Positions 6,777-30,693 of a stretch of DNA of 32,000 bases are shown piece by piece; the first letter of the stretch is position 1; each line of letters opens with the position of its first letter. The notes under the pieces are model-generated. The model worked only from the letters and a program-made list of their open reading frames with translations, ran no database searches and was not told where the DNA came from. The stretch covers positions 450,001-482,000 of the forward strand of contig NZ_CP147990.1 of assembly GCF_037902255.1 (NCBI RefSeq), given 5' to 3'. Source of the stretch: Candidatus Electrothrix sp. GW3-4 (GTDB taxonomy: Bacteria; Desulfobacterota; Desulfobulbia; Desulfobulbales; Desulfobulbaceae). Made by a program: the position numbers and the translations under genes.

Positions 6777-7261
6777 GTAAACAAATATTTACAAGCAAAT
6801 TTTGCACCGAATGTTCGCCAGGATTTGAAGAAAAAAATATTCCTAGGAAAAAAATAAAAGATATATTGGATAGATTCGAGTACTCTTTCTTTTTAAATTC
6901 ATCATTCTTAAAAATAATGCTGTTGTAAAAAAAGTCCGATCTACCGATGAAAAAGGATACTCCCCTCGCTGTTTTGCTGCTCCTCACAACCTTTCTTGCA
7001 GTCCCATCTGCTCAGGCCAATAACACGCGCCTGGAAGACAAACTCCTGGACCTGTATTTTGACGAAGAGGAGCTGGTGGAAACAGCGACCCGTTCTCCCA
7101 AACCCATCAGCCAGGTGGCGGAAAATGTAACCATCGTCACCGCCGAAGATATTGAGGCCATGCATGCCCATACCCTGGCCGAAGTGCTCAACCGGCAGGC
7201 GGGAGTCTTTGTCGATTTCTTTGGTCAGGATTTCCTTGGAGACGCAGCTGTCCGGCTTCTA

Positions 7262-7290
7262 GTGCTCTGTCACGACTTAATTTTAGGGTA
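7262..7290. repeat. IS630 terminal inverted repeat (end distal to the transposase start)
   Basis: GTGCTCTGTcacgacttAATTTTAGGGTA. Matches the reverse complement of 8462-8490 at 24 of 29 positions by hand alignment, with outer 9 and inner 12 nt identical. Confidence 0.8.
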
Positions 7291-7965
7291 AACGGATTTT
7301 AATTTGCACCGGGCATCAGAAATTTTCATTTGCCACTCAACACCACGTTGAGTGTTATTCACATCGCTTGACCATGCGGCAATCTCTTTCTGTAACGTCT
7401 CGATATCTCCTATACGACGATTGGCAAGACATTGTCGAGTCATGGAGCTCAATTCGTTTTCTGCTATATTGAGCCAGCTACCATGTTTCGGTGTGTAACA
7501 AAATTCAATCCGGCGTACTAATGCACGAGCACGTTCAGGAGGAAAAGCCTCATAAAAAGCTCCCTTTGTATGGGTGTTGAGATTATCGCAAACCAACGTT
7601 ATCTTTTCACATTCTGCATAGCGACCTTCAAGGAGGCGAGCCACTTCGATCGCCCAATCTGTTTTAGTCCGCCGAGGACGAGCTGTGGCTTCACGCCAGC
7701 CTGAAAGAGGCTCGGTGAACATGAAAATACTGGCTGTTCCGTTACGCTCATACTCATAATCAACGCGTTTAGCATGATTTTTAGTTGCCGGGATAGGTAA
7801 ACGAGTTTCCTTTATCAGCTGAACTGGTTGTTCGTCCATACAAAGAAAAGGATGATTAGGATTATACGGTCTTTCATAAACCTCTATCACATCTTCCATG
7901 TTGGCCACGAATTCCGCATCGTGTTTTGGTGGAATAACCCAGTATTGGATTTTCCGGTTGTTCAT
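7270..7965 (-). CDS. IS630-family transposase, DDE catalytic part (orfB)
   Basis: DDE_3-type motifs: LCMDEQPVQL (D), ITLVCDNLNTHTK (D), HGSWLNIAENELS (E). Confidence 0.85.
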   Translation of the reverse strand: MNNRKIQYWVIPPKHDAEFVANMEDVIEVYERPYNPNHPFLCMDEQPVQLIKETRLPIPATKNHAKRVDYEYERNGTASIFMFTEPLSGWREATARPRRTKTDWAIEVARLLEGRYAECEKITLVCDNLNTHTKGAFYEAFPPERARALVRRIEFCYTPKHGSWLNIAENELSSMTRQCLANRRIGDIETLQKEIAAWSSDVNNTQRGVEWQMKISDARCKLKSVYPKIKS

Positions 7966-8420
7966 CCCGTTTTTTTTATTACTTGGCGAATAGTTTCATG
8001 GCTGATCGACGGAACTATTTCCAATTCAACAACATGTCGGGCTAAAAGGCGCAGTGACCAATTTGCGTATCCCGGCGGAGGTGAACCAAGACGAGTGGCA
8101 ATGATTTTAACCTCCTGCTCCCCATTCAATAGTTTCGGAGTAGGCGGGGTTGCACGTTTTTTTCCGTCAAGAGCCTGTTGAAAACCGTGCAAAACAAAAT
8201 TTTGACGGATGTTCTCAACCGTTTTTGTCCTACAGTTGAATGCTTCTGCTATCCTGCTGTCTTTCCAACAGGGGCCATTTGCATCAGCTTTCAATAAGAT
8301 GTGAGCACGACGGACTTTCTGGCTGCCCCCCGAAAGCTTTTTGATAACCTCCTGTAAATGACAGCGTTCTTTTGGAGTCAATTGGACAATGTATTTTTTT
8401 GGCATGAAATCCTCTTTCAA
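7962..8420 (-). CDS. IS630-family transposase, N-terminal HTH DNA-binding part (orfA)
   Basis: 152 aa with helix-turn-helix-like segments (LTPKERCHLQEVIKK..., IAEAFNCRTKTVENIRQNF...). Its stop overlaps the ATG of the DDE ORF (ATGA at 7962-7965). Confidence 0.8.
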   Translation of the reverse strand: MKEDFMPKKYIVQLTPKERCHLQEVIKKLSGGSQKVRRAHILLKADANGPCWKDSRIAEAFNCRTKTVENIRQNFVLHGFQQALDGKKRATPPTPKLLNGEQEVKIIATRLGSPPPGYANWSLRLLARHVVELEIVPSISHETIRQVIKKTG

Positions 8421-8461
8421 TTTTTTTTTCGGACAACATGCTACATTAATTTTAAATACGC

Positions 8462-8490
8462 TACCCTAAAATTTAGATTTTACAGAGCAC
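8462..8490. repeat. IS630 terminal inverted repeat (end proximal to the transposase start)
   Basis: TACCCTAAAATTtagattttACAGAGCAC, the reverse complement partner of 7262-7290. Confidence 0.8.
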
Positions 8491-10173
8491 TAGGGTCCCA
8501 GCGACATCATGTGTTATTGCTCCTTGACGGGGTGCGCTTAAACCTTAACTCAAACGGCAGAGCCTTAACCCATTTTATCCCTCTCGGCATTATCAAGCGT
8601 ATTGAGATCATCAAAGGCGCGGCCTCTTCCAGCTGGGGCTCTGCCCTTGGTGGCGTGATCAATATTATCACCAAGGATGTCGGGAAGTCCAAGCGCCCCA
8701 CCGGTAATGTCCATGTCAGTTATGGCAAGAGGAACAGCCGTGATGTTGCAGCCGATGTGGCTGGCAAGGTGAAGGCCTTGGGCTATTATTTCCATGGCGG
8801 CAATATTGATTCGGAGGGGCTACGCCTTGACCGCTATGCTGAAAGAGATTCCGTTTACTGCAAAATGCAGCTTGAATTGCCCCACACCTCGCGCCTGACA
8901 GCTACCGCTGGCTCCAGTGATCCCTTTTATAAAAACCTTGACTGGCAGGATGCCTGGGGAATTACCGATCTCAATCTCTATACAGATGTTGAAAATCGAA
9001 ATTTCTGGGGCACCCTCTATTTTGATACCGAAATAACACAAGAGGTCACTCTCCATCTCTCTGGGCAGTATTTTGACAATTCCTATGCTGCCAACAGGCA
9101 TTCCTTGGGGACGGGGCTGGGTGGCTCCCAGGGTGAGCTGATCTTTGGGGAGAAATGGGACGATGAGGTTAGCTCTTTTATCGGTCGACTCACCTGGACA
9201 AGAGAATCTGTTATTGCTAATCTCGGTTTTGAGGCAAGCCGTAGCGAAATGCAATATGTAAGTCGATCAGGGGGCTTCTTTGATGGGCCATCATTCACAG
9301 AAGATGAGCCGGTCACAGAGGACCGGCACGGCGTATATGCTAATCTCACCTACGTCAAAGGTGATTTTTCCATTACCCCTGGCTTGCGTTATGACGACCA
9401 CTCCAATTCAGAGGAGACGGTCAATCCCTCTCTGGGCCTCACCTATCTGCTTACCCACGACACCCTTATTAAAGGTGCTATTGCTAAGGGGTTTTCAGCC
9501 CCTTATTTATCCTCCTCTTCCACTTCTCCAGCTCTTGAACCGGAAAATACCTGGACATACCAGGCTGGCATTGAAACAGGACGTATTATTCCCTCTCTTC
9601 ATCTCAAGGGGACCTTGTTTTATCACGATATTCAAGATGCATGGGATTACAATATGGTTCCCTGGGCCAATACCGGCACCATTCACCTTAATGGTTTTGA
9701 GATTGAGGCAAAAACTGCTGATTACCATGGTCTGAGCCTGACCGGCAATTTCACCTACGTTAAAGAAAAAAGTAAGGCGACGAGTACCACCTGGGAAGAT
9801 GATGAGACCTCTATCGCTAATCTTATTTTTTCTTACCGTAACACGACATATGGTCTACGCACAGAAATGGCTGGTCATTATTACAGGATGACTGATTATG
9901 TAATCAATGAAAAGCCCGAACATAGTACTGTTCTCTGGGATCTTCTCATTGCAAAAGACCTTGATATCTTATCCCCCGGTGGCGAAATTTACCTCAAAGG
10001 GCGTAATGTATTTAACGGCGATCAATATTTTGATATTGACTACTCCAACCCGCAGCAATGGATAGAGGCTGGGCTGACTTTCAAATTTTAGATTGACGTC
10101 TTCTTTACTCATCTGTTAGATTAAGCTATTGTACTCATTATGTTGCTCAACTTTACTAGCTTGGAGGTTCAAA

Positions 10174-13111: not shown

Positions 13112-13510
13112 AAAAACTGTTTATAGGGGCTGATAATATCGGGAGATCTCTTTATCAGTCTTGTTCCGTTGTTTCGCCTATCCTACTACGTTTTTTCCAG
13201 AGTGCAACAGGCCAGACCGTTTCGAGGAGAAATATCCCGATATTGGAAGCAAGCTCACAAAAGCGCTGATGGTCGTGGTCGTTCTTGACAAGGTGCTGGT
13301 TGTCAAGAAATTGACCTGGCAGGGAAAGGATGCTATTTTGAACGGTGAGCCTGCTGCGTTGCATCGGAAGAAAGTTGTGCAGCCGCCGCTGCAGGCTTTT
13401 CGCTCGTCCGATGCCTCTTGTAAAAGCGTGGGGCACCGGGAAGGGCAACAGACAGAAAACAGAATCCGCTTGTAACAGCGAGGAGCCAACAACGGGCAAA
13501 GGGGAGCAGC

Positions 13511-14881: not shown

Positions 14882-14905
14882 GTGCTGTGATTCCTGGATA
14901 GGGTT

Positions 14906-15946: not shown

Positions 15947-16047
15947 GTGGCGTCGGAGGAGGTTGTGGAGGAAGCTGAAATTTTTTTATCAGGTTTACCT
16001 CCCTGCTCCGGCGAAAAATGATCATAGGTTTACGCAGGTAAGCTGTT

Positions 16048-16479: not shown

Positions 16480-16510
16480 GGTTGTTACCCCATTTTAAGC
16501 ATGGCCCAAT

Positions 16511-16543
16511 GAACGGATAATAAACGGATAATAAACGGATAAT
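16511..16543. repeat. three tandem 11-bp direct repeats (G/A)AACGGATAAT upstream of the CDF transporter
   Basis: gaacggataat aaacggataat aaacggataat read directly. They end 8 nt before the ATG at 16552. The period is about one helical turn. Confidence 0.8.
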
Positions 16544-16551
16544 ATGAATTC

Positions 16552-17487: not shown

Positions 17488-17765
17488 GACGGAACGTCGC
17501 CGCTCGTTATGAAGAGGAACAGGACGACAAGGCTGTGCTGGTATGTAGGCTGTGCTGGTATGTATTGACCTATGTCATGGCCGTATGGCGTATGGCCAGC
17601 AAAGGAGGAGGTAAACCTGTTTACACGATATCTGAGATGAATTACAATCAAATTAAAATGGCTACTAACCAGCTGGAAGAAGAGATCTCTTATGAAGAGG
17701 TACGTTTCAGTATATCCCCGTTCTTAGTGCTCAGGGGGAAAACGGGTGAGCCTATTGATCATTAA
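17484..17765 (+). CDS. doubtful ORF (93 aa), ATGA-overlapped with the CDF stop; contains a 17-bp tandem duplication
   Basis: No recognisable motifs. A perfect 17+17 bp duplication inside would shift the frame. Coding status uncertain. Confidence 0.2.
   Translation: MRRNVAARYEEEQDDKAVLVCRLCWYVLTYVMAVWRMASKGGGKPVYTISEMNYNQIKMATNQLEEEISYEEVRFSISPFLVLRGKTGEPIDH
17531..17564. repeat. perfect 17-bp tandem duplication GGCTGTGCTGGTATGTA x2
   Basis: Read directly: 17531-17547 equals 17548-17564. Confidence 0.9.
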
Positions 17766-17785
17766 CCGAACAAACGGAGAGTTTC

Positions 17786-18157
17786 ATGCTACAGACATTG
17801 GGAAGGATACCTTGGATCTTTACCCCTATCATCTATCTGCTGGCGGTCCATCAGCTCAACATCTCTTTGGAAGGCCCGTCGGGCTATGCTTTTATCGGCA
17901 TAGCCGTGGTGGTGCTGTTTATCGAGTTTGTGAAATCAGGAGATATCGGGGTGGTTTCCTTTCTTCTTGATACCATCTCTTCGGTTCTGGCCCTGATGGT
18001 CTCTACGGCCTTGCTCACCTATATGATTTTCTCCCTCAATGAGGCACCGACTTTTTTCCATTGGTTTGGTTACGCAATCATCGTCGGTGACGCCCTGTTC
18101 AGCCCTGCCAACGCCTTTCGGACTGCGTTGCGGAACTTTGGGGTTGCCGGGCAGTAG
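17786..18157 (+). CDS. small four-TM membrane protein, hypothetical
   Basis: 123 aa with four hydrophobic segments. GGAGAG RBS 5 nt upstream of the ATG. Confidence 0.6.
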   Translation: MLQTLGRIPWIFTPIIYLLAVHQLNISLEGPSGYAFIGIAVVVLFIEFVKSGDIGVVSFLLDTISSVLALMVSTALLTYMIFSLNEAPTFFHWFGYAIIVGDALFSPANAFRTALRNFGVAGQ

Positions 18158-18267
18158 AGGAAAGAGGGGGAGGTTGTTTTCCGTTTTTTAGGTCATCCTG
18201 ACCCAGAACTAAACTGAATAATTCTTAACGATTCTGAGTAATTCCACTAGATTATATAGCAGGATTA

Positions 18268-20700
18268 ATGAAGATACAGACTGTTACCCCGGAAGAGGCC
18301 TGTCGTTCCTGTCATGCCGATGAATTCTCCTTTGAAACGACTGCAGAAATCGAGGAACTGACCCGGTACCTTGGCCAGGAGCGTGCCCTTGAGGCAGTGG
18401 ACTTTGCTATTTCTATAAAACAGCACGGCTTTAACCTCTTTGTTGTCGGCCCTGAAGGTTCTGGGCGCCATTGCGCTCTGCAATCCTTTATCCATCGCCA
18501 GGCCAGGGAAGAGCCCACCCCTGACGATTGGGGGTATGTCTATCATTTTGACCATCCGCATAAACCCCTTGCCCTGCAATTCCCGCCTCAGCAGATCTCT
18601 GTCTTTAAGCAGGAAATACATGAACTGATTGATGCCTTGAAGACGACGCTTGCTGCTGTCTTTGAAAGCGATGAATACCGGGCAAGGACTCAGGTCCTGA
18701 AGGAGAACCTGGGGCAAAAGGTTGATAAGATCTATAAGGAACTGATCGATAAAGGAAAAGAGCGCTCTGTTTCCGTTGTCAGAAACGAAAAAGGTGTTGT
18801 CTTTGCCCCACTTGATGAAGAAGAGCAGACTATAGATTTTGAAGCGTTTCAGAAGCTCCCTGAAGAAACGCAAAAAAAGATAGAGGCAGATATCGAGAAG
18901 CTGCATGGCGCATTGCAGCAGACAGTCCATCAGATCAGCCTGTTGACTCGTGACGCCAAAGAGCAGGAGCGCAGGCTGAAGCAGGAAACAGCTGCTCTCT
19001 GTGTTGCCCAGATTATTGATACCCTGAAGGCCAAGTACGCTGGCCAGGAAAAGATTCTCCGATATCTCAATGGGGTCGAAAGACAGCTTGTCGAAAATGT
19101 CGATGATTTTCAGGGCCGTTCCGATGCAGGTCCAGAGGCCATTATCTCGCTTGTTGCCCATCGCTCCCCCTTTGATCGCTATGATGTCAATATCCTGGTC
19201 TCTCATGGAGAGAGCGGGGCCCCTGTGGTCTATGAGGACCTGCCCACCTATCAAAACCTGCATGGCCGCATTGAGCATCAGGCCCAGATGGGGATGCTGA
19301 CCACCAATTTTTCTCTGATCAGGCCCGGGGCACTCCACCGGGCCAATGGCGGCTACCTTATTCTTGATGCGAGAAGGCTGCTGATGGAGCCCTTTGCCTA
19401 TGAAGGGTTGAAGCGGACCCTGCGTTCTGGACAGATTCGCATGGAGCCGGTGGAGCGTCTTCTTGGTATGATGAGTACGGTCTCCCTGGAGCCTGAGCCC
19501 ATTGCGCTTGATGTTAAAGTGGTGTTGGTTGGCGAGCCTATGATCTATTTTTTGTTGAGCCATTATGATCCGGAATTTGGCTCGCTGTTCAAGGTGCAGG
19601 CGGATTTTGAACACGATATAGAGAGAACAGCGGCGAGTCAGCAGCAGTATGCAGCCCTCCTTGCTGGTCTTGTCCAGGAGAACAAACTCTTGCCCCTGCA
19701 TAAGAGCGCAGTGGCCCGGGTCATTGATGAGGCAGCCCGCCATGCGAGCGACAACACAAAGCTCTCTCTCCATATCAGAAAGGTTGCTGACCTGATCAAA
19801 GAAGCGGATTATCTGGCCGGAAAAAGGCAGGGGGAACGGATTGAGGCCGAGGATATCGAGACAGCGGTGGCGGCCCGCAAACGCCGGGGCGCCCGCATCC
19901 GTGATCGTTTTTTTGCCTCCATTGATGACGGGCTCCATTATATTACAACTGAGGGGGCAAAAATCGGGCAGGTGAACGGACTTTCCGTGGTCCAGATGGG
20001 CGATAACGCCTTTGGTTTTCCCACCCGTATCACCGTCGTGACCCGACCCGGCAAGGGCGATATAGTGGATATTGAACGTGAGGTTGAACTAGGCGGTCCT
20101 CTCCACTCCAAGGGGGTGATGATCCTTGGTGCCTTTCTTCGTTCACGCTATGCCCGCAACATTCCGCTGGGGTTGCAAGCGAGTCTGGTCTTTGAACAGT
20201 CCTATGGCGGCGTTGACGGAGACAGTGCCTCCTGTGCCGAGCTCTGCGCCTTGCTCTCCTCTCTGGCCGAGGTCCCGCTCCGGCAGGATTTGGCCCTTAC
20301 CGGCTCAATCAGTCAACAAGGGGAGGTGCAGCCTGTGGGCGGGTTGAATGAAAAGATTGAAGGGTTCTTTGATGTCTGCGCTACCAGAGGCCTGACCGGC
20401 CAGCAGGGGGTCATTATTCCGGCGGTGAACCGTCGCCATCTGATGCTCAAAAAAGAGGTGGTCCAGGCTCTTGTGGATAACCAATTTACTCTCTACCTGG
20501 TAAACACGGTGGACGAGGCCATTTCCCTGCTCACCGGTCTTGAGGTCGGTGAATGTAACAGTGAAGGCCGCTATCCGCAGGATTCAGTTAACGCTCGCGT
20601 TGAGGCGACCTTGCTCCGTTTTGCCCGGGATCTGCGGGCCTTTGCAAGGCAGGAGAAGGGTGAGGAAGAGAACAAGGAAACAGATCAGGATGGCACTTGA
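18268..20700 (+). CDS. Lon-like protease (LonB/COG1067-type): AAA-like N-terminal region plus Lon S16 proteolytic domain
   Basis: GQERALEAV..., P-loop-like VVGPEGSGRH, then a C-terminal Lon domain (IGQVNGLSV, ELGGPLHSKGV, catalytic Ser context DGDSASCAE, Lys context GGLNEKIEGFF). Confidence 0.85.
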   Translation: MKIQTVTPEEACRSCHADEFSFETTAEIEELTRYLGQERALEAVDFAISIKQHGFNLFVVGPEGSGRHCALQSFIHRQAREEPTPDDWGYVYHFDHPHKPLALQFPPQQISVFKQEIHELIDALKTTLAAVFESDEYRARTQVLKENLGQKVDKIYKELIDKGKERSVSVVRNEKGVVFAPLDEEEQTIDFEAFQKLPEETQKKIEADIEKLHGALQQTVHQISLLTRDAKEQERRLKQETAALCVAQIIDTLKAKYAGQEKILRYLNGVERQLVENVDDFQGRSDAGPEAIISLVAHRSPFDRYDVNILVSHGESGAPVVYEDLPTYQNLHGRIEHQAQMGMLTTNFSLIRPGALHRANGGYLILDARRLLMEPFAYEGLKRTLRSGQIRMEPVERLLGMMSTVSLEPEPIALDVKVVLVGEPMIYFLLSHYDPEFGSLFKVQADFEHDIERTAASQQQYAALLAGLVQENKLLPLHKSAVARVIDEAARHASDNTKLSLHIRKVADLIKEADYLAGKRQGERIEAEDIETAVAARKRRGARIRDRFFASIDDGLHYITTEGAKIGQVNGLSVVQMGDNAFGFPTRITVVTRPGKGDIVDIEREVELGGPLHSKGVMILGAFLRSRYARNIPLGLQASLVFEQSYGGVDGDSASCAELCALLSSLAEVPLRQDLALTGSISQQGEVQPVGGLNEKIEGFFDVCATRGLTGQQGVIIPAVNRRHLMLKKEVVQALVDNQFTLYLVNTVDEAISLLTGLEVGECNSEGRYPQDSVNARVEATLLRFARDLRAFARQEKGEEENKETDQDGT

Positions 20701-20747: not shown

Positions 20748-21917
20748 TTAGCGTGGTTTTTCCTTTTGCCGAACCAGGTCACTTTTTGCATGGTGCGCAT
20801 ACCAATACGCCTTGACCCATCTCCACACCATCCGTGGATGCTCAATACATCGTGCCTTCCAATAGTGCTTCCCTTTCAGATGGCCATAATAGAGTTGCAC
20901 CCACCACCTGGACGGCCATAGGGTTTCCTTGGCAAGGGCTGGTAACCTTGTCCACGGTGTTTTTCGTATCTTCCGCAGGGGCCAGCCGTCAAAGGGGAGT
21001 CCGGCATGCTGCGGACGATCAGTTATATCCAGCTTAAGCCCTTCGCGGATGTGTTCAGGCCACGGCGTCAGGTGGTGCAGACAGGAAAGCACGTTAACGA
21101 GGATCGGCATCTCTTTGTGGGTGGCTTGCCAGTCTATCTTGTCATAGAATTTCTCAACAAGGGTCACCAGATCGGCGACATGGATGAGCCTGAACGGCTC
21201 ATAGGTCAAAGGTGCCTGAAATCCATGCAGGTAGATATACCATAAGCTCTCTTCCAGGTTGAGGGTACGGGCTCTGACACCGTTGATCGCAAACGCCATA
21301 GCTGTATGGTAGGACTTTTCCAGAGGCCACAAGGGGTATTGTGGGTGGAAGGGCAGGAGGTTGTGATGGACCTCCAGGCTTACCGGCAACCCGTCAATGT
21401 CCCTGCTCATCGGCGTAAGGTGGTAATAGTCCTCCGGGACAGCATGCCCTTCATCTGGCCGATAGCCAAGCTGCAAGAGAATGTCTTTCACCTCAGCAAG
21501 ATCGTCCTTGCTGACCAGGAGGTCGATATCCCGCATGGGGCGCATCCCGATTTCACCATAGGCGAAGTTGGCCAGGGCGATCCCCTTGACAAGCAGGAGC
21601 TCGATTCCTTGTTGGCAACAGACATGGACGACTTCCTCGATAGCCCTGTTTCTGATGGTATTGGAGCGCCGGTTGCGCAGGTACAGGCCCTGCAATATCC
21701 GTCGGTCATTGCGCGGTATGGTGCAGTCCAAGTCCAGTAGCCGGGTATGTTGATAGAGTAGGGGGGCTACACCCTGTCTTTCCGCCTCCCGGATCAGTTG
21801 CCCCCATGCGCCTCCCTGGCTTTGAAAAGCGGCAAGGGCTTGATCCAGCTGGGAGAGCATGGGGGCATGGCTCAAATTCCGGCAACAGAGTGCGAGGATG
21901 GTCCGGATATCAGTCAT
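20748..21917 (-). CDS. nucleotidyltransferase-fold protein (uncharacterised NTP_transf_5-like family)
   Basis: Motif GEIGMRPMRDIDLLVSKDD..LGY (G-x...DxD nucleotidyltransferase signature). Start moved to ATG 21917 (MTDIRTIL), preceded by GAGGA overlapping the upstream TAG. The track's longer form overlaps the kinase gene by 146 nt. Confidence 0.7.
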   Translation of the reverse strand: MTDIRTILALCCRNLSHAPMLSQLDQALAAFQSQGGAWGQLIREAERQGVAPLLYQHTRLLDLDCTIPRNDRRILQGLYLRNRRSNTIRNRAIEEVVHVCCQQGIELLLVKGIALANFAYGEIGMRPMRDIDLLVSKDDLAEVKDILLQLGYRPDEGHAVPEDYYHLTPMSRDIDGLPVSLEVHHNLLPFHPQYPLWPLEKSYHTAMAFAINGVRARTLNLEESLWYIYLHGFQAPLTYEPFRLIHVADLVTLVEKFYDKIDWQATHKEMPILVNVLSCLHHLTPWPEHIREGLKLDITDRPQHAGLPFDGWPLRKIRKTPWTRLPALAKETLWPSRWWVQLYYGHLKGKHYWKARCIEHPRMVWRWVKAYWYAHHAKSDLVRQKEKPR

Positions 21918-21924
21918 GGTTCCT

Positions 21925-22782
21925 CTAGCGGGCCAACCCGGTAACAAGATCGTCCAGCGCCTCCTTGATGCCTGCAAAACTGCTGTAGGTGAGCCGGTAA
22001 GCAGGCGTTGAGCGGGCAAGTTGTACCATCTGTTGAAAGCCGTGATCAGAGAGATTGCGTGCGTTAACATCGCAGGCCATCAGCAATGAGGAAGCCCGGG
22101 CTCCTGAGATCTTTTCTTTCCGCAGAGGTGCGCCGCTTTGATAGGTCGGAAAGAGGAGCAACGCGGGTGGGGCGGATATGGGGGTATATAGCGGATTGAG
22201 TGCTCTATGCGCCACCACGGCTCCCTGCTCGTCTTCGAGCAGGGGGACGGGAGGATTATTGCCTGGGATCAGTTTCTTGATAACCGCTACGGCCTGCGAT
22301 TTTATGCAGAACGGTCTGGTAAAAGGAATAACCTGATCCGGTTTTTCGGCAGGAAACAAGACAAGCTCGTCTGTCAAGTAGGAACAACCCTGAGCAGTCA
22401 GCCAGGCGGACAAGTTACTTTTCCCAGAACCGCTTGGGCCAGGCAGCAAGATGACCCTGTCCTTGCCCCGCTCTTGATAGGCAACAGCGCCAGCATGAAC
22501 AGCAACACCGGCGCTGTTGTCCTTGAGGAGGTTGAAAATGACCAGATCAAATACGATCGCCGCACATTGCACCCCGAGGCGGCCCGTGTACTGTGGCTCC
22601 TCGTTGATGGCAAGGGTGTATTGTCCGTTGTTCTGCCGGGAAAATGTCAGTCGTGCTGCCTCCTCTCCACCGCTGGAGCCATGCAGATCTGCAAAGAGAA
22701 AAGAGACAAAACGATGAACCTCTTTCTCTTCGGAGAGGATGGTGACCGTTGTTCCGGCAAATTGCACGGGATATTCCGCCAT
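21925..22782 (-). CDS. HPr-kinase-related P-loop kinase (HprK C-terminal-domain-like)
   Basis: Walker A LLPGPSGSGKSNLSAWL followed by YLTDELV. Size and layout resemble the HprK-related kinases encoded next to PqqD-like proteins. Confidence 0.7.
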   Translation of the reverse strand: MAEYPVQFAGTTVTILSEEKEVHRFVSFLFADLHGSSGGEEAARLTFSRQNNGQYTLAINEEPQYTGRLGVQCAAIVFDLVIFNLLKDNSAGVAVHAGAVAYQERGKDRVILLPGPSGSGKSNLSAWLTAQGCSYLTDELVLFPAEKPDQVIPFTRPFCIKSQAVAVIKKLIPGNNPPVPLLEDEQGAVVAHRALNPLYTPISAPPALLLFPTYQSGAPLRKEKISGARASSLLMACDVNARNLSDHGFQQMVQLARSTPAYRLTYSSFAGIKEALDDLVTGLAR

Positions 22783-22795
22783 GAGGGATTCGCTG

Positions 22796-23152
22796 TCAAC
22801 AGGGAAATGGTTCGTTACGCTGCCTTAAGCGGGCAATATCCTTGTCCACCAGGCTGGTGATAATCTCCACTACACCAGCCTGGATAGACTCTCTGCTTTC
22901 AGGATACGCAGCCATCAGGATATCGATAATCTCCCTGATGCTTCTTTTTCCGTCACAGAGTTCCCAGATCAGAGCGCCGGTCTCGTTCAGGTAGATCGAG
23001 GTGGTGAGAGACGGGTGATACACGGTAATTTCATTGTCTATCTTCTCCAGAAGATAACCTGCTTCCAGGACAACAATGCTGTCTTTATGCATCAGACGGC
23101 TCGCTAGCGGGAATTGCCTGCATGGAGAACTTTTTTGAACTGCTCCCGTCAT
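22796..23152 (-). CDS. PqqD-family (RRE-type peptide-binding) protein
   Basis: ITVYHPSLTTSIYLNETGALIWELCDGKRSIREIIDILMAAYP...VVEIITSLVDKDI matches the PqqD pattern (beta strands, then LN.TA..IWELCDG..S..EI). Its ATG shares a base with the upstream TAA (TAATG). An alternative start is M21 at 23092. Confidence 0.75.
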   Translation of the reverse strand: MTGAVQKSSPCRQFPLASRLMHKDSIVVLEAGYLLEKIDNEITVYHPSLTTSIYLNETGALIWELCDGKRSIREIIDILMAAYPESRESIQAGVVEIITSLVDKDIARLRQRNEPFPC

Positions 23153-23934
23153 TACTCTCCATGTGCTTGTTTGGCGTAGCTGGTAAAGTCGATGGGGACA
23201 TGGGGATTTGACTTATCATATCCGCTCCCCTTAATATCGCCTGCTGCGGTTATGCTTCGCACATAATCACCTTTACTGCCACTGGAATAGTCATACACCT
23301 CAATAACGCTTTTGTTGTCAGAATTGGCGATACCTTCATGTGTATTCAACGACATAGTCAAGGTTGCCTTTTGGATAGTCGCAGATGAGGGAATAGAGCT
23401 CAGGTCAGCGCTGAAATATTCAGGTCCCCGTGTTTTTTTAATCAGCATAGGACTTGATTGCGAACTGGTAAAGGTGCCGTTACTGTGCTCGATGACAAGC
23501 CTTGCCGAGTCAAACCATATTCCGCAGCTGTCGCAGGCCATGACAGTCTGGTAAAAAACCAGGCTGAACATACCCGTGCCAGCAACGGCCGTGTCCAGAG
23601 CTTCTTCCGCTGTCTCGGATGTGTCAGCCGTAACTGTGTCCTCAGCTTCTTCGACGGTCTCAGATGCATCTGCAATAATTTTTTCCAGAGCTTCTTTGAA
23701 CTCCCCGGATGTGGTTGCATGGGCGGGCAGGGAGCCAAATTCTATAATTGGTGCGGTCCATTTTTCGGGCAGTATACTGCATCCGGCCAAAGCGGCGCTT
23801 CCAACGGCAAGTTTTTTGATTACCGTTCTTCTGCTGATGTTCTGCTCTCGGTCAATAGATTGCAGGCACTGATCGGCTTTATCATTGTTGTGGGGCTCTG
23901 TTTCGTTATTGGGCATCGTTAAGGTAAACCTCAT
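23152..23934 (-). CDS. predicted Tat-exported lipoprotein, hypothetical, with an acidic internal repeat
   Basis: Twin-arginine motif SRRTVIKK, h-region LAVGSAALAG and lipobox LAGC. Start trimmed to ATG 23934 (or 23916) because a near-consensus promoter sits at 23973-24000, inside the track's 344-aa version. Confidence 0.6.
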   Translation of the reverse strand: MRFTLTMPNNETEPHNNDKADQCLQSIDREQNISRRTVIKKLAVGSAALAGCSILPEKWTAPIIEFGSLPAHATTSGEFKEALEKIIADASETVEEAEDTVTADTSETAEEALDTAVAGTGMFSLVFYQTVMACDSCGIWFDSARLVIEHSNGTFTSSQSSPMLIKKTRGPEYFSADLSSIPSSATIQKATLTMSLNTHEGIANSDNKSVIEVYDYSSGSKGDYVRSITAAGDIKGSGYDKSNPHVPIDFTSYAKQAHGE

Positions 23935-23972
23935 CTTATTTCGATTATTCAGTAGGTAAAAGTTGTCACCAC

Positions 23973-24000
23973 AGTATACTCTGTTGGTAGATAAGGTCAA
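23973..24000 (-). promoter_or_regulatory. sigma70-like promoter for the Tat-lipoprotein/PqqD/kinase/NTase operon
   Basis: Minus strand reads TTGACC, a 16-nt spacer, then TATACT, about 40 nt upstream of the first candidate ATG. Confidence 0.45.
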
Positions 24001-25612: not shown

Positions 25613-25636
25613 AAAGGGGGACAGATTTATTTTTTT
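25613..25636 (+). repeat. REP-like element copy 1 (AAAGGGGGACAGATTTATTTTTTT) overlapping the RAYT stop
   Basis: Read directly; near-identical to 26324-26346. Confidence 0.75.
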
Positions 25637-26319
25637 CTTCCAGGTCGACCTTGCTTTTTATTTGATAGGCGAATTCCAAGCTTTTTTTCGATCTCTCCCC
25701 GAAACCGGTCGGTGCCGGTCAACTGCCCTCTCTGTACTGCTTCCCGTATCAGTTTGATTTCATGTTCCGGTACAGTACCGAAGACATATTTTTTATACGC
25801 TGTTTGCCTTTCCTGTTCAGTATCTCCTAAGGACAGATAAAATTGAGGCAGATCCACAACTGTGTCCCTTCTCCCGTAAACTTTAGCCCCATAGCTTGAC
25901 CATTGATATTGAGCAGGGTCAGTAACCATTCCGGCACGGAGAGGATTCAGTTCAATATAACGGCAGCAGGCTGGCAGATACTCTTGGGCAGATATTATGC
26001 TGGATTTATAGCGACCTTCCCATAAACTGCCTGAACGCTCTTCCCGTTTGTTGATATATCTCGTCTGTCGCCCGGCGACCCGCTTCATCAGGAGTGCAAG
26101 TGATCCTGGACTTCTCCCAGGGTCAACGATGAGGTGGACATGGTTGGTCATCAGGCAGTAGGCGTATATTCCACAGCCGAACTCCTGTTTAAAGACCGTA
26201 AGGTTCTCCAGATAATAATTATAATCGTCATCGGAAGTGAAAACGGCCTGACGATTATGTCCTCGTTGGACAATGTGGTGAGGGGTATGCGGAAGGACAA
26301 TTCGTGCTGATCGAGGCAT
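25627..26319 (-). CDS. rayT: REP-associated tyrosine transposase (RAYT) / IS200-like Y1 HUH transposase
   Basis: PHHIVQRGHNRQAVF, HUH motif in YCLMTNHVHLIV, and SGSLWEGRYKS with the catalytic Tyr context. Flanked by REP-like repeats. The ATG at 26319 is more likely than the track's TTG at 26325. Confidence 0.8.
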   Translation of the reverse strand: MPRSARIVLPHTPHHIVQRGHNRQAVFTSDDDYNYYLENLTVFKQEFGCGIYAYCLMTNHVHLIVDPGRSPGSLALLMKRVAGRQTRYINKREERSGSLWEGRYKSSIISAQEYLPACCRYIELNPLRAGMVTDPAQYQWSSYGAKVYGRRDTVVDLPQFYLSLGDTEQERQTAYKKYVFGTVPEHEIKLIREAVQRGQLTGTDRFRGEIEKKLGIRLSNKKQGRPGRKK

Positions 26320-26323
26320 TTTC

Positions 26324-26406
26324 AAAAGGGGACAGATTTATTTTTCTTGTCAAGGTAACCAGTTTTAAGCCAAAAGCCAAGTGGAAAATAAATCTGTCCC
26401 CTTTTG
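26324..26406. repeat. REP-like inverted pair (copies 2 and 3) forming a long hairpin 5 nt upstream of the RAYT start
   Basis: AAAAGGGGACAGATTTATTTTTC (26324-26346) and its inverted copy GAAAATAAATCTGTCCCCTTTTG (26384-26406), separated by 37 nt. Confidence 0.8.
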
Positions 26407-26495
26407 TCTAAACAGAATAATACATCATGTTGAAGTCGCACCCTTTCGACTGATACTATATGCGGACTTGGTTCTGATAATCCATTCCTTCAATC

Positions 26496-26524
26496 TTGAC
26501 AGTTACGCACCCTATATGTATGGT
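26496..26524 (+). promoter_or_regulatory. sigma70-like promoter of vapBC
   Basis: TTGACA (26496-26501), a 17-nt spacer, then TATGGT (26519-26524). A GAGGA RBS precedes the ATG at 26566. Confidence 0.45.
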
Positions 26525-26565
26525 TTAGATATGAACTATTACACATATAAAAATGAGGAAAAAGT

Positions 26566-26784
26566 ATGCGAACAACATTAAATATTGATGACTGTCTGTT
26601 TCAGGATGTGTTGAGCATAACCAAGGCGAAAAGTAAAACAGAGGCAGTCAGAACCGCCCTGACAGAATACTTACGAATGAAACGGAAAGAAAAGATACTG
26701 GCGATGCGCGGCAACGTGGATATTAGGGACTCGGAGACATTGCGTCAGGAAGAAATCAAGGAGTATGAGGAAGACAGGCAATGA
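26566..26784 (+). CDS. vapB: type II antitoxin, VapB family
   Basis: MRTTLNIDDCLFQDVLSITKAKSKTEAVRTALTEYLR is typical of the VapB (DUF2191-like) antitoxin N-terminus. ATGA overlap with the PIN gene. Confidence 0.8.
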   Translation: MRTTLNIDDCLFQDVLSITKAKSKTEAVRTALTEYLRMKRKEKILAMRGNVDIRDSETLRQEEIKEYEEDRQ

Positions 26785-27173
26785 ACGTGTTGATTGATAC
26801 GTCTGCCTGGATTGATTTTTTTCGGAATACTGGCGGGGCGGCAGGGGATTTGGTTGCGGAGCTGATCCGGCTTGATCAAGCGTATTTAACAGGGCCGGTT
26901 ATGGCTGAACTGTTTCATGGAGCCAGAGGTAAACGGGAAACAAAGGAGCTGGATGCTGTTTTTGCAACAATTCCAATTTTGGATGTCGGTCGTGAAGATT
27001 GGATCAAGACAGGAAGCATATTGCATGGCCTGCGCAAAAAAGGTCTGTCTGTTCCGTTAACTGATGTCTTGATAGCTTCTGTTGCTCTGCATAACAAGAT
27101 GACTGTCCTCACTCTGGATAAACATTTTCAGCATCTGCCGGTCGAATGCGTGAAAATTCAGGAGGAGAGGTAA
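26781..27173 (+). CDS. vapC: type II toxin, VapC PIN-domain ribonuclease
   Basis: LIDTSAWIDFFR (first acidic residue), ...AEL..G... and LTDVLIASVA...LTLDKHF are PIN-domain hallmarks; 130 aa. Confidence 0.85.
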   Translation: MNVLIDTSAWIDFFRNTGGAAGDLVAELIRLDQAYLTGPVMAELFHGARGKRETKELDAVFATIPILDVGREDWIKTGSILHGLRKKGLSVPLTDVLIASVALHNKMTVLTLDKHFQHLPVECVKIQEER

Positions 27174-27224
27174 TCCTGCCGGGATATGGTGGTGTATCCG
27201 GTTGGGCATATAACAATCTGGTTT

Positions 27225-27303
27225 GTCCGGGAAAACCGCATGCTCGGTTTGATGAGGGGATATCGAGGATCAAAGCAGGGTAAAGGTGGGCTGGCCCCGA
27301 TTT
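27225..27303 (+). repeat. about 79-bp repeat, copy A, directly 3' of vapBC
   Basis: GTCCGGGAAAACCGCATGCTCGGTTTGATGAGGGGATATCGAGGAT...AAAGGTGGGCTGGCCCCGATTT. Hand-aligned to copy B at about 40/46 plus 19/22 identities, with an 11-nt indel. Confidence 0.7.
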
Positions 27304-27396
27304 CCCGGCACTCCTTGCCTTCAGGGTGATATGATGATATAAAGAACCCATGATGCAGGATGAATATATTTGAATACATACCTGAGAGGTTATACC

Positions 27397-27636
27397 ATGA
27401 AGGCAACAACAATTCGTATGGAAGATGCTGTTCTGGAGCGTGTGGATTCTCTGGCAAAAGCTCTGAACAGGTCACGCACCTGGGTTGTCAATCAGGCTGT
27501 TCAGCGTTTTCTCGGTTATGAGGAATGGTTTATTCATGAAGTGAAATCTGGAATCCGGGAAGCTGAAAACGGCGACCTTGCGTCAGACAAAGAGGTGGCG
27601 GAACGCTTTGCCCGCTGGGGTGCGGATGCGGATTAG
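27397..27636 (+). CDS. ribbon-helix-helix (CopG/ParD-like) antitoxin
   Basis: MKATTIRMEDAVLERVDSLAKALNRSRTWVVNQAVQRFL is the RHH fold pattern. GAGAGG RBS lies 7 nt before ATG 27397 (the track ORF starts earlier at a non-ATG codon). Overlaps the parE start. Confidence 0.75.
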   Translation: MKATTIRMEDAVLERVDSLAKALNRSRTWVVNQAVQRFLGYEEWFIHEVKSGIREAENGDLASDKEVAERFARWGADAD

Positions 27637-27910
27637 ATGGACAAACAAGGCACTTGATAATCTGGATACCGCTGTGGAGTTCATTGCCGCAGACAATCCC
27701 GGAGCAGCGCAAAAGGTTGCCCGGACAATTCAGCAATCTGTACAGCTGCTTGCGGAACAGCCTGGAATCGGCAGGCCAGGACGGGTTGCGGGCACAAGAG
27801 AGCTGGCTATCAGCGGATTGCCGTATATTATTCCCTAGATAGAGCAGGACGGAAGCGTTATTATTCTGCGGATCATGCATGCCTCCATGAAATGGCCTGA
27901 GTCCTTTTAG
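27626..27910 (+). pseudogene. parE: ParE/RelE-family toxin with an in-frame amber codon (TAG at 27836-27838)
   Basis: MRIRWTNKALDNLDTAVEFIAADNPGAAQKVARTIQQSVQLLAEQPGIGRPGRVAGTRELAISGLPYIIP-TAG-IEQDGSVIILRIMHASMKWPESF. The same frame continues after the TAG to a stop at 27908-27910 and encodes the conserved ParE C-terminus (..ILRI.H....WP). Confidence 0.7.
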
Positions 27911-28205: not shown

Positions 28206-29294
28206 TTATCGATCACCCTTAAAGTGGGATGTCACATGTCGCATCAATCCTTCCAGAAATCCCAGTCCTAAGCCAACATGCACTGTAAATATAATTGTAG
28301 GTATCAAAAGAATCTTTGGGTTGTCCCTGACTCTAAGACATTTTACAAACTTAGCTTCCTCAACCCCAAGAAGAAGCACATACAGAATCATTGGGCACCA
28401 TAATAATAACGATGAAGAAAAAATCAACGAAATACTCATCAACGTTAGTAAATAAATCACAAATGCTGACGGCACTATGGTATCAATCGTTAATCGTTTC
28501 GAATGCTTAATAATAAACATTGCTCTTCCATGCCCATAACGAAACATTTGGCGATATACTGACGAGAGTGAATCACGAGGGTAATAGTTAACTGCCAGGT
28601 TAGAGGCGATATAACACTCAATCTCCTCTTTTTCTATACGATAGTTAAACTCATAATCTTCAGCAGCATCGAAATTTTCATCAAAATAACCAATCTTTTC
28701 AAAAATCTCTTTGTGATAAAAAACGGCACAGCTGATCGGACTTACCCACCCAGAAAAATCATCATAAATGTATGATTCTGGAGAATGAGCTAGGCGTGAG
28801 GACCTTGCAAGAGTGACAGCTTTTTGAAAATTAGATATATGGGGTGGTGTTAAGGGCTGCGGACGCCCAATCACCTTAGCGTCATTGGTAATGGCGGCGT
28901 TAGCATAATGTGATAGCATACTGTTAGTTGGTATATGTACATGCCCATCAATGAGTAAACAATAGTCACCCTTTGAATTGCGTATAGCAATATTGCGTGC
29001 TGCACTAGATAGTCGCTTTGGGTTTTCAAACAGTCTGATGTCTAAATCATTATGCTTGTGTTTAAAATCCTTGATTAATTCCCCTGTTCTATCCGTTGAC
29101 ATTCCATCAACAACAATTACCTCCATTCGGTCATGTGAATAATCCTGCTGATAAATTTGATCCAAGGTTTTCACAATAAATTTTTCCTCATTGTAAACAG
29201 GTATTATCACAGTAATAAAAGGATTCTCGCTATCCATTCGTAGTACCTTCTCCAAAATCCAGGGTAAAATATGCTCAATGACATTTTTCTGCAC
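28206..29294 (-). CDS. family-2 glycosyltransferase with a C-terminal membrane region
   Basis: ITVIIPVYNEEKFIVKTLDQIYQQDY...MEVIVVDGMSTDRT (GT2 N-terminus, DxD-type VVDG), ED in AAEDYEF, then three or four TM helices. The start may be ATG 29237 rather than GTG 29294. Confidence 0.85.
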   Translation of the reverse strand: MQKNVIEHILPWILEKVLRMDSENPFITVIIPVYNEEKFIVKTLDQIYQQDYSHDRMEVIVVDGMSTDRTGELIKDFKHKHNDLDIRLFENPKRLSSAARNIAIRNSKGDYCLLIDGHVHIPTNSMLSHYANAAITNDAKVIGRPQPLTPPHISNFQKAVTLARSSRLAHSPESYIYDDFSGWVSPISCAVFYHKEIFEKIGYFDENFDAAEDYEFNYRIEKEEIECYIASNLAVNYYPRDSLSSVYRQMFRYGHGRAMFIIKHSKRLTIDTIVPSAFVIYLLTLMSISLIFSSSLLLWCPMILYVLLLGVEEAKFVKCLRVRDNPKILLIPTIIFTVHVGLGLGFLEGLMRHVTSHFKGDR

Positions 29295-29436
29295 CGTAAA
29301 TGGCTGAGTTTACGTGTTGGCAAATTTACGCTAACGGTAATAGTCCTGAAGATGAGATTACAGTTTTTCCATTAATGCCCCAGAAACAGAATGAAACAAT
29401 TGATTCTGAATCAGGCATCACCACCTCATTGTAGGG

Positions 29437-30693
29437 CTACTCCCCACCAGAATACCTATCATAAGCAACTCCATCTTGAAAATGAAGCTGTGCTTTTTGC
29501 CACGCTTCATCCTGTAAGCCTGTAAGGTGGTCCCAATCATAACAAGCTGTAACTAGTGCATACCCCTCGTTTCCTATCATTCTTTGTTTTCTTTCGTCCC
29601 TTAAAATATCCAAAATAGCAGCAGCAAAATCATCAGGCAGATCGGCCAAGACAATATTCTTGCCATCAGTTATACTTAGTCCTTCTGCACCTATTGAGGT
29701 CGAAACAATCGGCTTGTGCATTGCCATAGCCTCAAGAATTTTCAGCCGAGAGCCTCCACCGATTCTCAGAGGAACAATACAAATTTTCGATCGTGCAATA
29801 AATTCTCTAACATCAGGCACACTACCAGTTACCTTAATTTGACTATTCTTCTCCCCATATTCCCTTATCTTAGCGGGAGGGTTTTTTCCAACAAGCCACA
29901 GCTCAATATCTGTGAGGGCTTCTTGCAGTATTGGAAAGATATTATTCACAAAATAATGGGCACCATCTTGATTGCTAAAGGTATCGAAAGAAGCAACAAA
30001 TATTATCCTATTTCCCTCAAGCTCTTCCCGTTGACCGATCTTGTTGTTTTCGTTATAGAATTCTAGATCAACTCCGTTGTCAACCAATGAAACCTTTCCA
30101 CCATATTCTTCAATTACTAATTTATCAGCTTCACTAACAGCAATACATCTATCGACCCTAGGATACCATTTTCTTTCAAGTTTTTCTATTCTTTTAGCCT
30201 GAACTCTCCCTAGCAATCGTTTGAAAATATTTGAGCCATTCAACGCAAACCTATACCAAATATCAGATTCAATATTATGGGCAGCTATTACAGTGGGAAA
30301 ATCGCCATATTCTTCGAGCAAAGGTGCTAGATTTGTCCACTCGCAATGAATAAGGTCGGGAGATAATCTACGCACAGCATTATGCATTCGCTCTTTAAAT
30401 GCTTTCGTGACATGATACTGCGTAGAAAAGGGTACCGATAAAAAAAAATTTATTATCACCTCCCAATAAAATTTAGTTGTCCATTTAGCAGTACGGACAT
30501 CAGGGACAGGTATCACATGGATACCGATTTCCTGAAAAATTTTAATTTTCTCGTTGTCTTTATTCTTGTCAACGTATGCTAGAAAATGTATTTCATGCCG
30601 ATTGGCAAGATTGGCTATCGTGTTAAAAGTACGAATTTTTTTTCCTGTTTCTAAAGGCCATGGCAACCATTCATCCACCACTAAAACTTTCAT
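29437..30693 (-). CDS. GT-B fold glycosyltransferase (GT4 / Glycos_transf_1-like)
   Basis: MKVLVVDEWLPWPLETGKKIRTFN N-terminus and a C-terminal sugar-donor domain (FVASFDTFSNQDG..., VPLRIGGGSRLKILEAMAMHKPIVST..GAEGL). GAGAGGAAG RBS. Confidence 0.85.
   Translation of the reverse strand: MKVLVVDEWLPWPLETGKKIRTFNTIANLANRHEIHFLAYVDKNKDNEKIKIFQEIGIHVIPVPDVRTAKWTTKFYWEVIINFFLSVPFSTQYHVTKAFKERMHNAVRRLSPDLIHCEWTNLAPLLEEYGDFPTVIAAHNIESDIWYRFALNGSNIFKRLLGRVQAKRIEKLERKWYPRVDRCIAVSEADKLVIEEYGGKVSLVDNGVDLEFYNENNKIGQREELEGNRIIFVASFDTFSNQDGAHYFVNNIFPILQEALTDIELWLVGKNPPAKIREYGEKNSQIKVTGSVPDVREFIARSKICIVPLRIGGGSRLKILEAMAMHKPIVSTSIGAEGLSITDGKNIVLADLPDDFAAAILDILRDERKQRMIGNEGYALVTACYDWDHLTGLQDEAWQKAQLHFQDGVAYDRYSGGE

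Follow-up and report, generated by a model that had tools for sequence, protein, structure and literature searches.

What does a bacterial operon modify when it carries the tailoring enzymes of lasso peptides without a lasso cyclase? The question is raised by four genes that run in one direction on the minus strand (23916..20748) of a 32,000-nucleotide stretch of the Candidatus Electrothrix sp. GW3-4 genome (NZ_CP147990.1, positions 450,001 to 482,000), referred to here as the window. In transcriptional order they encode a protein with a leader of the twin-arginine translocation (Tat) type (gene A); a PqqD-like protein that would be a discrete RRE, the recognition element of ribosomally synthesized and posttranslationally modified peptides (RiPPs); an HprK-like P-loop kinase; and a nucleotidyltransferase (NTase) of the NTP_transf_5 family. 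The most fitting description of the locus is a Gram-negative variant, with a Tat leader, of the linear polyphosphorylated peptide (LPP) type, within a large leader family that has no name. By analogy with LPPs, we consider it rather probable that the operon is a self-contained, RRE-dependent protein modification cassette for the Gram-negative envelope, with the gene A product as its substrate.

Profile searches against NCBIfam and Pfam upheld the enzyme assignments that had been made from the letters of the sequence. The PqqD-like protein matches PF05402 (PqqD) with 54.9 bits (gathering threshold [GA], 23.4), and among solved structures it comes closest to the lasso RRE TbiB1 (E = 3.3e-5), closer than to PqqD itself. 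The NTase matches PF14907 (NTP_transf_5) with 152.8 bits (GA, 31.2). For the kinase, the Pfam copy that was scanned gave no match, and comparing its profile with PDB sequences brought up P-loop-level matches only; its best NCBIfam match is TIGR04352 (HprK_rel_A; E = 1.6e-27), below the cutoff of that model. The AlphaFold2 model of the kinase (pLDDT, 91.8) resembles the PEPCK and HprK/P folds (Foldseek probability of ~1; E values of 3e-4 to 2e-3), and its homologues have precomputed Pfam matches to PF27840 (ScmC), marked as faint where such marks are printed. Model and profile matches support its placement in the HprK/PEPCK-fold P-loop kinase family.

The link to lasso-type tailoring enzymes, already drawn in the sequence-only reading, holds. 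Kinases of the HprK-like family act on the linear precursors of paeninodin-type lasso peptides, placing phosphate on the C-terminal Ser; the pseudomycoidin pathway goes on to attach one or two hexoses to this phosphate through a nucleotidyltransferase (PMC8498205). The missing lasso genes are indeed missing: Pfam scans of 38 open reading frames (ORFs) of the window, including the four operon genes, found no Asn-synthase-like macrolactam cyclase and no transglutaminase-type B2 protease, and those of the 34 further ORFs found no ATP-binding cassette (ABC) exporter near the operon. Neither a SipW-type leader peptidase nor an MsbA-like pump was found in the window by the same scans.

The leader of gene A belongs to a widespread family. 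Alignments of diverse members define an invariant pattern, RR-(22)-W-x-x-P-(7)-P-A-H-A. The part of A that is conserved is residues 31 to 77 (up to 81% identity) rather than the folded domain, and the C-terminal parts vary between loci. When a 52-residue leader profile was run against 1.84 billion representative proteins (clusters at 50% identity), 4,503 clusters matched at E ≤ 1e-3 and 1,758 at E ≤ 1e-10. In all of the best 150 matches the match starts within the first 84 residues, and these proteins are 51 to 345 residues long; a first alignment-based protein search had given short proteins only, and the length range comes from the exhaustive representative search. The motifs were tallied in the 137 new sequences among these 150 matches. 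The full motif is present in 132 of the 137, with exact PAHA in 131 of those 132, and the residue at position +3 after PAHA is always hydroxylated (Ser in 110/132, Thr in 22/132). We found no description of this family in the searchable literature, which is not proof that none exists.

What follows the predicted cleavage site is hypervariable (4 to 286 residues), against a conserved N terminus, a pattern like that of precursors. The cargoes include poly-Thr or TTTAAP peptides of 59 to 93 residues in total length in Bradyrhizobium, Mesorhizobium, and Variibacter, but also folded domains, and no client protein ends in Ser. One Mesorhizobium leader peptide (P0126, L059:6001-6264) has a His/Asp-rich core (…AHAALSGTTHHHYHDDSCTHDDHDHHYHD…) instead of poly-Thr, a composition that suggests metal binding in some family members. 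Leader-peptide genes can also stand in tandem, with three directly upstream of the kinase gene in a Bradyrhizobium locus (L050) and two in another locus (L042).

Gene A itself combines this leader with an acidic, disordered linker and a C-terminal domain (Table 1). Its homologues begin with MP[IN]N[EK], and for this reason we favor the start at 23916 over the in-frame alternative ATG at 23934. In the AlphaFold2 model, residues 1 to 118 are disordered and residues 120 to 260 form a β-sandwich (pLDDT, >94), for which there was no significant PDB fold match and no Pfam match; in NCBIfam, A weakly matches DNRLRE (23 bits; cutoff, 34). A PDB search with the leader peptide returned nothing. Two homologues, P0131 and P0178, are named by NCBI as twin-arginine translocation signal domain-containing proteins. 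The sequence-only reading had seen no obvious short precursor. A leader hidden Markov model (HMM) run over all six frames of the window matched gene A only and detected no extra small precursor genes. What that reading missed is that a separate short precursor is not to be expected, because the first gene would itself be the precursor.

Conserved gene neighborhoods point in the same direction. A sequence pattern of the kinase, applied to one genome per species, yielded 50 loci with a kinase relative, most of them in Desulfobulbales (Ca. Electrothrix, Ca. Electronema, Desulfobulbus, and Desulfocapsa) and a few in Arenicellales, Thiomargarita, Hyphomicrobium, Bradyrhizobium, and other alphaproteobacteria. 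Clients were tallied by tblastn and with the leader HMM in six frames across 51 nonredundant loci. A leader-bearing ORF lies beside the trio of enzyme genes in 29 of the 51, in the order RRE-kinase-NTase-A in 21 and in another position in 8; about 6 loci are cut by contig ends. The Tat protein, which had been regarded as a new element of this cassette, is therefore not new; only the gene order of the window, A-RRE-kinase-NTase, is unusual and in fact unique among the 51 loci. As to whether a Tat protein or a small peptide always accompanies the trio, a leader-bearing product is common there but not constant. The converse search took three short Mesorhizobium leader peptides whose contigs are long (L058, L059, and L060) as its starting points and found the cassette adjoining in all three. 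In L058 the peptide is followed, in this order, by a 595-residue protein with a weak Glycos_transf_2 match in the position of a kinase-glycosyltransferase fusion, a PqqD gene, and a sulfotransferase-NTP_transf_5 fusion; in L059, by a ScmC-like kinase (faint match), a family 2 glycosyltransferase (GT2), and NTP_transf_5, with no PqqD gene called; and in L060, by PqqD, a 293-residue gene in the kinase position without a recorded Pfam match, and NTP_transf_5. On this conserved leader and its synteny, gene A is the conserved fourth component of the cassette and its probable substrate, which supports the earlier guess that the modified client might be the Tat protein.

The leader is also kept where A is not linked to the enzymes. 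The two proteins most similar to the A of the window, one in Ca. Electrothrix laxa (70% identical) and one in a metagenome contig (L056; 69%), both retain it without the trio alongside. In E. laxa this orthologue lies about 0.5 Mb from a cassette that has its own, different A, and L056 shares DEAD helicase, radical SAM (rSAM)-SPASM, and cation efflux neighbors with the window but lacks the trio and the Lon gene. That unlinked orthologues keep the leader implies recognition in trans through it. Probably, then, the trio serves several clients per genome by way of a shared leader, and in the window it lies beside a client that is a paralogue. The comparison further suggests that the trio and the Lon gene moved in beside gene A in the window. 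The genes around the unlinked A in L055 and L056 correspond to positions 12026 to 18157 of the window and encode a HIT protein, a 456-residue DEAD/ResIII helicase, an rSAM-SPASM protein, a cation efflux protein, and a 123-residue ORF. To judge by the neighbors shared with E. laxa and the metagenome contig, the window belongs to the cable-bacteria lineage or lies close to it.

Of the systems described so far, the one most like this cassette is the LPP family of Bacillota (Popov et al., Nat Commun 2026, PMC13381572), which the sequence-only reading did not mention. LPP clusters encode a discrete RRE protein, a kinase of the HprK-like type, an NTP transferase that is uncharacterized, a SipW-type (SpI-like) peptidase, and an MsbA-like pump, and they often lie inside capsular polysaccharide loci (PMC13381572). 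Their precursors, 35 to 200 residues long, have the conserved N terminus YxxPxVLxHQxIxFETxxS and variable C termini; [Y/W]xxPx[L/V/I/F/A] is the RRE-binding motif, with Tyr at −16 in LppA and Trp at −15 in the paeninodin-type PbaA (PMC13381572). Cleavage follows T−1, and the only residue modified is core Ser3, which can receive as many as four phosphates from LppK (PMC13381572).

The parallels are several. The operon has the RRE, the HprK-like kinase, and an NTP transferase, whose identity with LppN is assumed from the lasso literature rather than from sequences. The gene A family pairs an invariant N-terminal WxxP with hypervariable C termini; its Trp lies at −15 from the AHA site, compared with Tyr at −16 in LppA, and its Ser/Thr at +3 corresponds to the acceptor Ser3, so that the two geometries agree nearly exactly. 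Frequent glycan-gene surroundings and the lack of a cyclase are common to both. There are also differences: a SipW-type leader peptidase and an MsbA-like pump are missing here, the leader would be a twin-arginine signal with an AxA end and has Trp rather than Tyr, and the cargoes include folded domains, with some relatives having kinase-GT2 or sulfotransferase-NTase fusions. The hosts are Desulfobacterota and Proteobacteria, whereas LPPs and paeninodins have been stated to be restricted to Bacillota (PMC13381572). Paeninodin and pseudomycoidin tailoring (PadeK-like kinase and PsmN) uses the same enzyme families and a WxxP leader with Trp at −15, but the acceptor there is a C-terminal Ser, whereas here the conserved Ser lies at +3 and neither a macrolactam cyclase nor a B2 protease is present.

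These comparisons suggest a likely pathway. Before export, while the precursor is still in the cytoplasm, the PqqD-like RRE would bind its WxxP segment and present the residues that follow, so that the HprK-like kinase could phosphorylate, or polyphosphorylate, the Ser at +3 (TTS-G). The NTP_transf_5 enzyme might then extend or cap the phosphate with a nucleotide-activated group, a hexose in the case of pseudomycoidin. To judge from the features of the signal peptide, the modified and already folded protein would be exported by Tat, and its leader removed at AHA by the general signal peptidase I, although lipidation at LAGC is possible in this subfamily. Tat and a housekeeping peptidase would thereby stand in for the MsbA-like pump and the SipW-like peptidase of the Bacillota systems; tolerance of Tat for folded and decorated cargo would explain why no ABC pump is needed. 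Gene content, two-way synteny, the invariants and spacing of the leader, and the fold families are observed, and the modification steps of the pathway are what we infer by analogy with LPP and lasso systems.

If the RRE occupied the signal's c-region, export could, speculatively, be held back until modification is complete, much as with Tat proofreading chaperones. Tat proofreading chaperones (redox enzyme maturation proteins of the TorD, DmsD, and NapD type) bind signal peptides in the cytoplasm before export; they have unrelated folds and serve cofactor insertion. Bufferins use a signal peptide that doubles as a RiPP leader, with Sec signals and MNIO enzymes. The pathway proposed here would share a cytoplasmic binder on the signal peptide with the former and a signal peptide serving as a RiPP leader with the latter. 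As a tentative generalization, possible rather than probable, the Tat signal may have been co-opted as a RiPP-type leader in at least about 1,700 Gram-negative protein clusters. Docked on a WxxP motif within the c-region of the signal, the RRE would be both Tat proofreader and recruiter for the HprK-like kinase and a nucleotidyl/glycosyl-transferase, and only precursors bearing a (poly)phosphate or phosphoglycan at +3 would be exported. The products, periplasmic or surface proteins and poly-Thr peptides with a phospho(glyco) tag near the N terminus, would form a class not recognized before; in relatives of cable bacteria and in rhizobia they might have a link to the assembly of exopolysaccharide or of the envelope.

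Domain fusions connect the kinase step with additional decoration. The kinase is fused to GT2 at L050:9827-11668 and L043:9887-11671, with Glycos_transf_2 matches of 28 to 32 bits, above the GA; the kinase at L039:9932-11644 has a GT2 match below the cutoff, and that at L053:9875-11671 shows the same ~600-residue architecture as judged by sequence alone. In Mesorhizobium (L058:8490-10172), a Sulfotransfer_2 domain and the NTP_transf_5 enzyme form one fused protein. A C-terminal kinase extension of ~290 residues is seen in alphaproteobacterial, Arenicellales, and some Desulfobulbaceae loci. Separately, in Ca. Electronema and a Desulfobulbaceae metagenome-assembled genome (L006:5892-7767, L010, and L011), a kinase paralogue adjoins a MauG-like diheme cytochrome c peroxidase (PF03150) in loci without an NTP_transf_5 gene; these may represent a different kinase-containing cassette.

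Several observations weigh against the assignment of A as a leader-guided substrate. The likeness of the enzymes to LppK, LppB, LppN, and the paeninodin kinase is one of family and description, not of direct sequence comparison. The NTP_transf_5 step is the weakest of the pathway, because the LPP NTase was inactive in the heterologous host in the sole LPP reconstitution, and its substrate is unknown even there (PMC13381572). Against TIGR01409, the twin-arginine signal model, gene A scores 16.2 bits, just under the cutoff of 16.7. The c-region of the leader, which contains the W-x-x-P-[IVL] motif, is 18 residues; this is long for signal peptidase I, so that cleavage at AHA is a prediction only, and the window protein could alternatively be processed at LAGC. 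The loci were gathered by a kinase pattern, and the sample is biased toward relatives of the window. Of the 51 loci, 11 have no client within the fetched flanks, and 5 have a leaderless relative of A. In these five ("delta proteobacterium"/Desulfofustis), the protein has the β-sandwich of the window's A behind an ordinary Sec-lipoprotein signal (…LLTISC-SDDDGGTSGGSG…) without RR, WxxP, or PAHA, and the linkage of the trio to it is left unexplained by a substrate model. Such loci, together with those lacking a nearby client, mean either that A is sometimes encoded elsewhere or that the β-sandwich has a role other than that of substrate. The leaderless genes lie 3′ of RRE-kinase-NTase (L030:12063-12674, L031:12123-12791, L033:12116-12802, L038:12070-12693, and L054:11878-12516), and their products have in common a stretch C-(S/G)-D-D-D-G-G-(T/S)-(S/A)-G-G-S-G behind the lipobox. 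About 69 of 120 gene A homologues are of this Sec-lipoprotein kind.

The alternative that survives best takes up this last point. A may be a partner or effector of the enzymes, with the RRE acting only as a Tat proofreading chaperone and the kinase and NTase acting on other targets, for instance a glycan or lipid belonging to the polysaccharide pathway nearby, or peptides encoded elsewhere; this would account for a β-sandwich that stays linked to the trio even with a plain Sec-lipoprotein signal, and it would suit the glycan genes that recur nearby and an NTase without a known substrate even in LPPs. The invariant Ser/Thr at +3 and the fixed spacing from Trp to the cleavage site nevertheless mirror the acceptor geometry of LPPs. 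Moreover, the leader is found on many unrelated cargoes, among which poly-Thr peptides of 59 to 93 residues would hardly be common effectors, and the characterized homologous kinases phosphorylate peptides. We regard a mere partner role as unlikely.

A second alternative keeps A as the substrate but has it processed as a Tat-exported lipoprotein, cut at LAG|C, with the WxxP…AHA-TTS segment retained as a tether and several Ser/Thr residues of the linker modified. The lipobox is canonical, the linker has 8 Thr and 3 Ser, and distant members have poly-Thr cores. The term lipoprotein, which the sequence-only reading applied to the protein, has in its favor that LAGC is present and that the Cys is kept in most Desulfobulbales members. 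In close relatives the Cys is replaced, however, by Tyr in L009 and L029 and by Leu in L047, it is absent in the distant members examined, and a lipobox-like Cys occurs in 12 of the 137 sequences tallied, whereas RR, WxxP, PAHA, and the +3 Ser/Thr are essentially invariant. With a Cys that lacks conservation, being a lipoprotein can at most be a feature of a subfamily. The single modified residue of LPPs, Ser3, likewise speaks against multiple acceptors in the linker, and we consider this processing route decidedly unlikely.

The sequence-only reading had likened the locus to the HPr-rel-A system, of which it would be an ordinary member with the Tat lipoprotein as an incidental or lineage-specific neighbor. 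Both consist of a kinase and an adjacent PqqD-family gene (TIGR04352 with TIGR04353, PqqD_rel_X), and TIGR04352 is the best-scoring model for the kinase. In an NCBIfam search at E ≤ 10, however, both defining models were missed widely: the kinase reached 96.4 bits against a cutoff of 200, and the PqqD-like protein reached 13.1 bits (E = 0.14) against a cutoff of 35. Five diverse kinase relatives fared no better against TIGR04352 (82 to 96 bits), and synteny of the Tat-leader gene holds for most informative loci and also in the reciprocal searches. HPr-rel-A membership is rejected and an incidental A is very improbable; on these scores, the cassette is at best a sister clade of HPr-rel-A, related but separate. 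We know of no client family described for HPr-rel-A. The SynChlorMet system is a further candidate that does not fit: the kinase homologues have the faint ScmC matches mentioned above and the RRE weakly matches TIGR04248 (ScmD), but the score is 28.6 bits against a cutoff of 100 and there are no adjacent radical SAM/SPASM partners, the nearest rSAM-SPASM gene lying about 5 kb from the operon behind unrelated genes.

Finally, it is scarcely credible that the trio represents orphaned lasso tailoring genes with precursor, cyclase, and B2 protease elsewhere in the genome and gene A unrelated, because, even though HprK-like kinases and NTP transferases are known as lasso tailoring enzymes (PMC8498205) and the RRE resembles lasso B1 proteins, neither a cyclase nor a B2 protease was found among the 38 ORFs scanned in the window or in the annotated clusters of at least five loci, and the conserved fourth gene itself bears the RRE-binding motif.

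The locus points to a much larger Gram-negative counterpart of LPPs, one in which a Tat signal would serve as the leader and a dedicated peptidase or pump would not be needed. If the proposed pathway is right, the pattern RR…WxxP…PAHA-x-T-S would be a simple sequence rule for finding substrates genome-wide, full-size folded proteins included, and RiPP-style leader recognition would be linked to the quality control of Tat export. The biological role of LPPs is unknown (PMC13381572), and the four-gene operon and the three tandem Bradyrhizobium peptides would offer tractable cases for learning what NTP_transf_5 enzymes add to phosphoserine.

Table 1. Features of the four-gene operon and of the gene A product (window coordinates)
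Feature	Position	Strand	Remark
Gene A (Tat-leader client protein)	23152..23916	-	254 aa from ATG 23916; 260 aa from ATG 23934
PqqD-like gene, putative discrete RRE	22796..23152	-	Start overlaps gene A stop (TAATG)
HprK-like P-loop kinase gene	21925..22782	-	
NTP_transf_5 nucleotidyltransferase gene	20748..21917	-	
Sigma-70-like promoter match, TTGACC-16-TATACT	23973..24000	-	10/12 match, upstream of gene A
Leader/Tat-type signal peptide, ending in PAHA (AxA site)	23716..23916	-	Invariant in alignments, with constant spacing: RR, W, P, and PA(H)A
Leader peptide segment of gene A			ILPEKWTAPIIEFGSLPAHA
Twin arginine RR in SRRTVIKKL	23827..23832	-	RR invariant in both leader alignments
Lipobox-like LAGC within the h-region	23779..23790	-	
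WTAPII, fits [Y/W]xxPx[L/V/I] RRE-binding motif	23743..23760	-	W at -15 from AHA site
PAHA, predicted signal peptidase I (AxA) site, leader end	23716..23727	-	
TTSG	23704..23715	-	Ser at +3 (codon 23709..23707), predicted phospho-acceptor
Acidic Thr/Ala-rich disordered linker	23578..23703	-	8 Thr, 3 Ser
C-terminal β-sandwich domain (CDSCGIWFDSA...)	23155..23577	-	
Kinase Walker A/P-loop GPSGSGKS	22417..22440	-	G115, S117, G118, G120, K121, and S122 invariant in alignment
D-I-D motif of nucleotidyltransferase	21522..21530	-	

The layout of the operon is as first described: the four codirectional genes are separated by a 1-nucleotide stop/start overlap between gene A and the PqqD-like gene (GGAGAGTAATG), a 13-nucleotide gap before the kinase gene, and a 7-nucleotide gap before the NTase gene. 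The promoter proposed upstream is present, but the quality of the match does not distinguish it from chance: there are 9 matches of 10/12 in the window, compared with 7.6 ± 2.6 in composition-matched shuffles. As such matches are common by chance, only its position speaks for it, on the right strand of the ~330-nucleotide intergenic gap before gene A (roughly p ~ 0.04). Downstream, the operon is bounded by a convergent LonB/LonC-like protease gene (18268..20700, plus strand). A 557-residue ORF that runs antisense through that gene (18265-19938, minus strand) is probably a noncoding shadow ORF.

Upstream of the operon lie AIG2/GGACT and MAPEG genes, a transposase of the IS200 type, and two toxin-antitoxin pairs. 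The last three elements, an IS200-type Y1 transposase (25627..26325), a VapB/PIN pair (26566..27173), and an RHH/ParE pair (27370..27838), occupy positions 25627 to 27838 and separate the operon from glycosyltransferase genes at 28206..30693. The first of these, a GT2 gene (28206..29294), falls in the same ORF cluster as the GT2 genes found 3′ of the cassette in other loci, and for this reason the mobile elements may have split a once-contiguous region of glycan genes and cassette.

Clustering of 1,004 ORFs from all loci showed that only the four core genes are generally shared. A MacB-type ABC ATPase recurs in 19 loci, though not in the window, and some relatives have genes for a MacB-type ABC protein, a membrane fusion protein (MFP), and an outer membrane efflux protein (OEP); sugar-nucleotide epimerase, GT1, and GT2 genes recur nearby in smaller groups of loci. 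Where annotated, the clusters present in at least five loci comprise ABC/MacB exporter parts, an epimerase, glycosyltransferases, an ABC permease, PilZ, MFS, and an FAD oxidoreductase, with no peptidase, SipW-type peptidase, cyclase, or B2 protease among them; two of the clusters in at least five loci have no Pfam match. One ORF cluster (c18; for example, L002:5855-6565 and L003:5673-6650) is found in five Desulfobulbales loci directly upstream of the RRE gene, after an OEP-MFP-MacB exporter. Its product has a signal peptide, acidic E/T/K-rich repeats, a Gly/Ser/Thr-rich stretch, and a conserved C-terminal domain, without a Pfam match, and it is absent from the window.

Two observations concern other parts of the window. 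A TonB-dependent receptor (6947-10091) is seemingly split into a Plug fragment (6947..7291) and a barrel (8358..10091), with an insertion sequence element between them on the opposite strand (DDE_3 transposase, 7270..7965, and HTH_32, 7962..8420). At 1148-2935, a single ORF joins a trypsin-like peptidase domain to an FGE-sulfatase (formylglycine-generating enzyme-like) domain.

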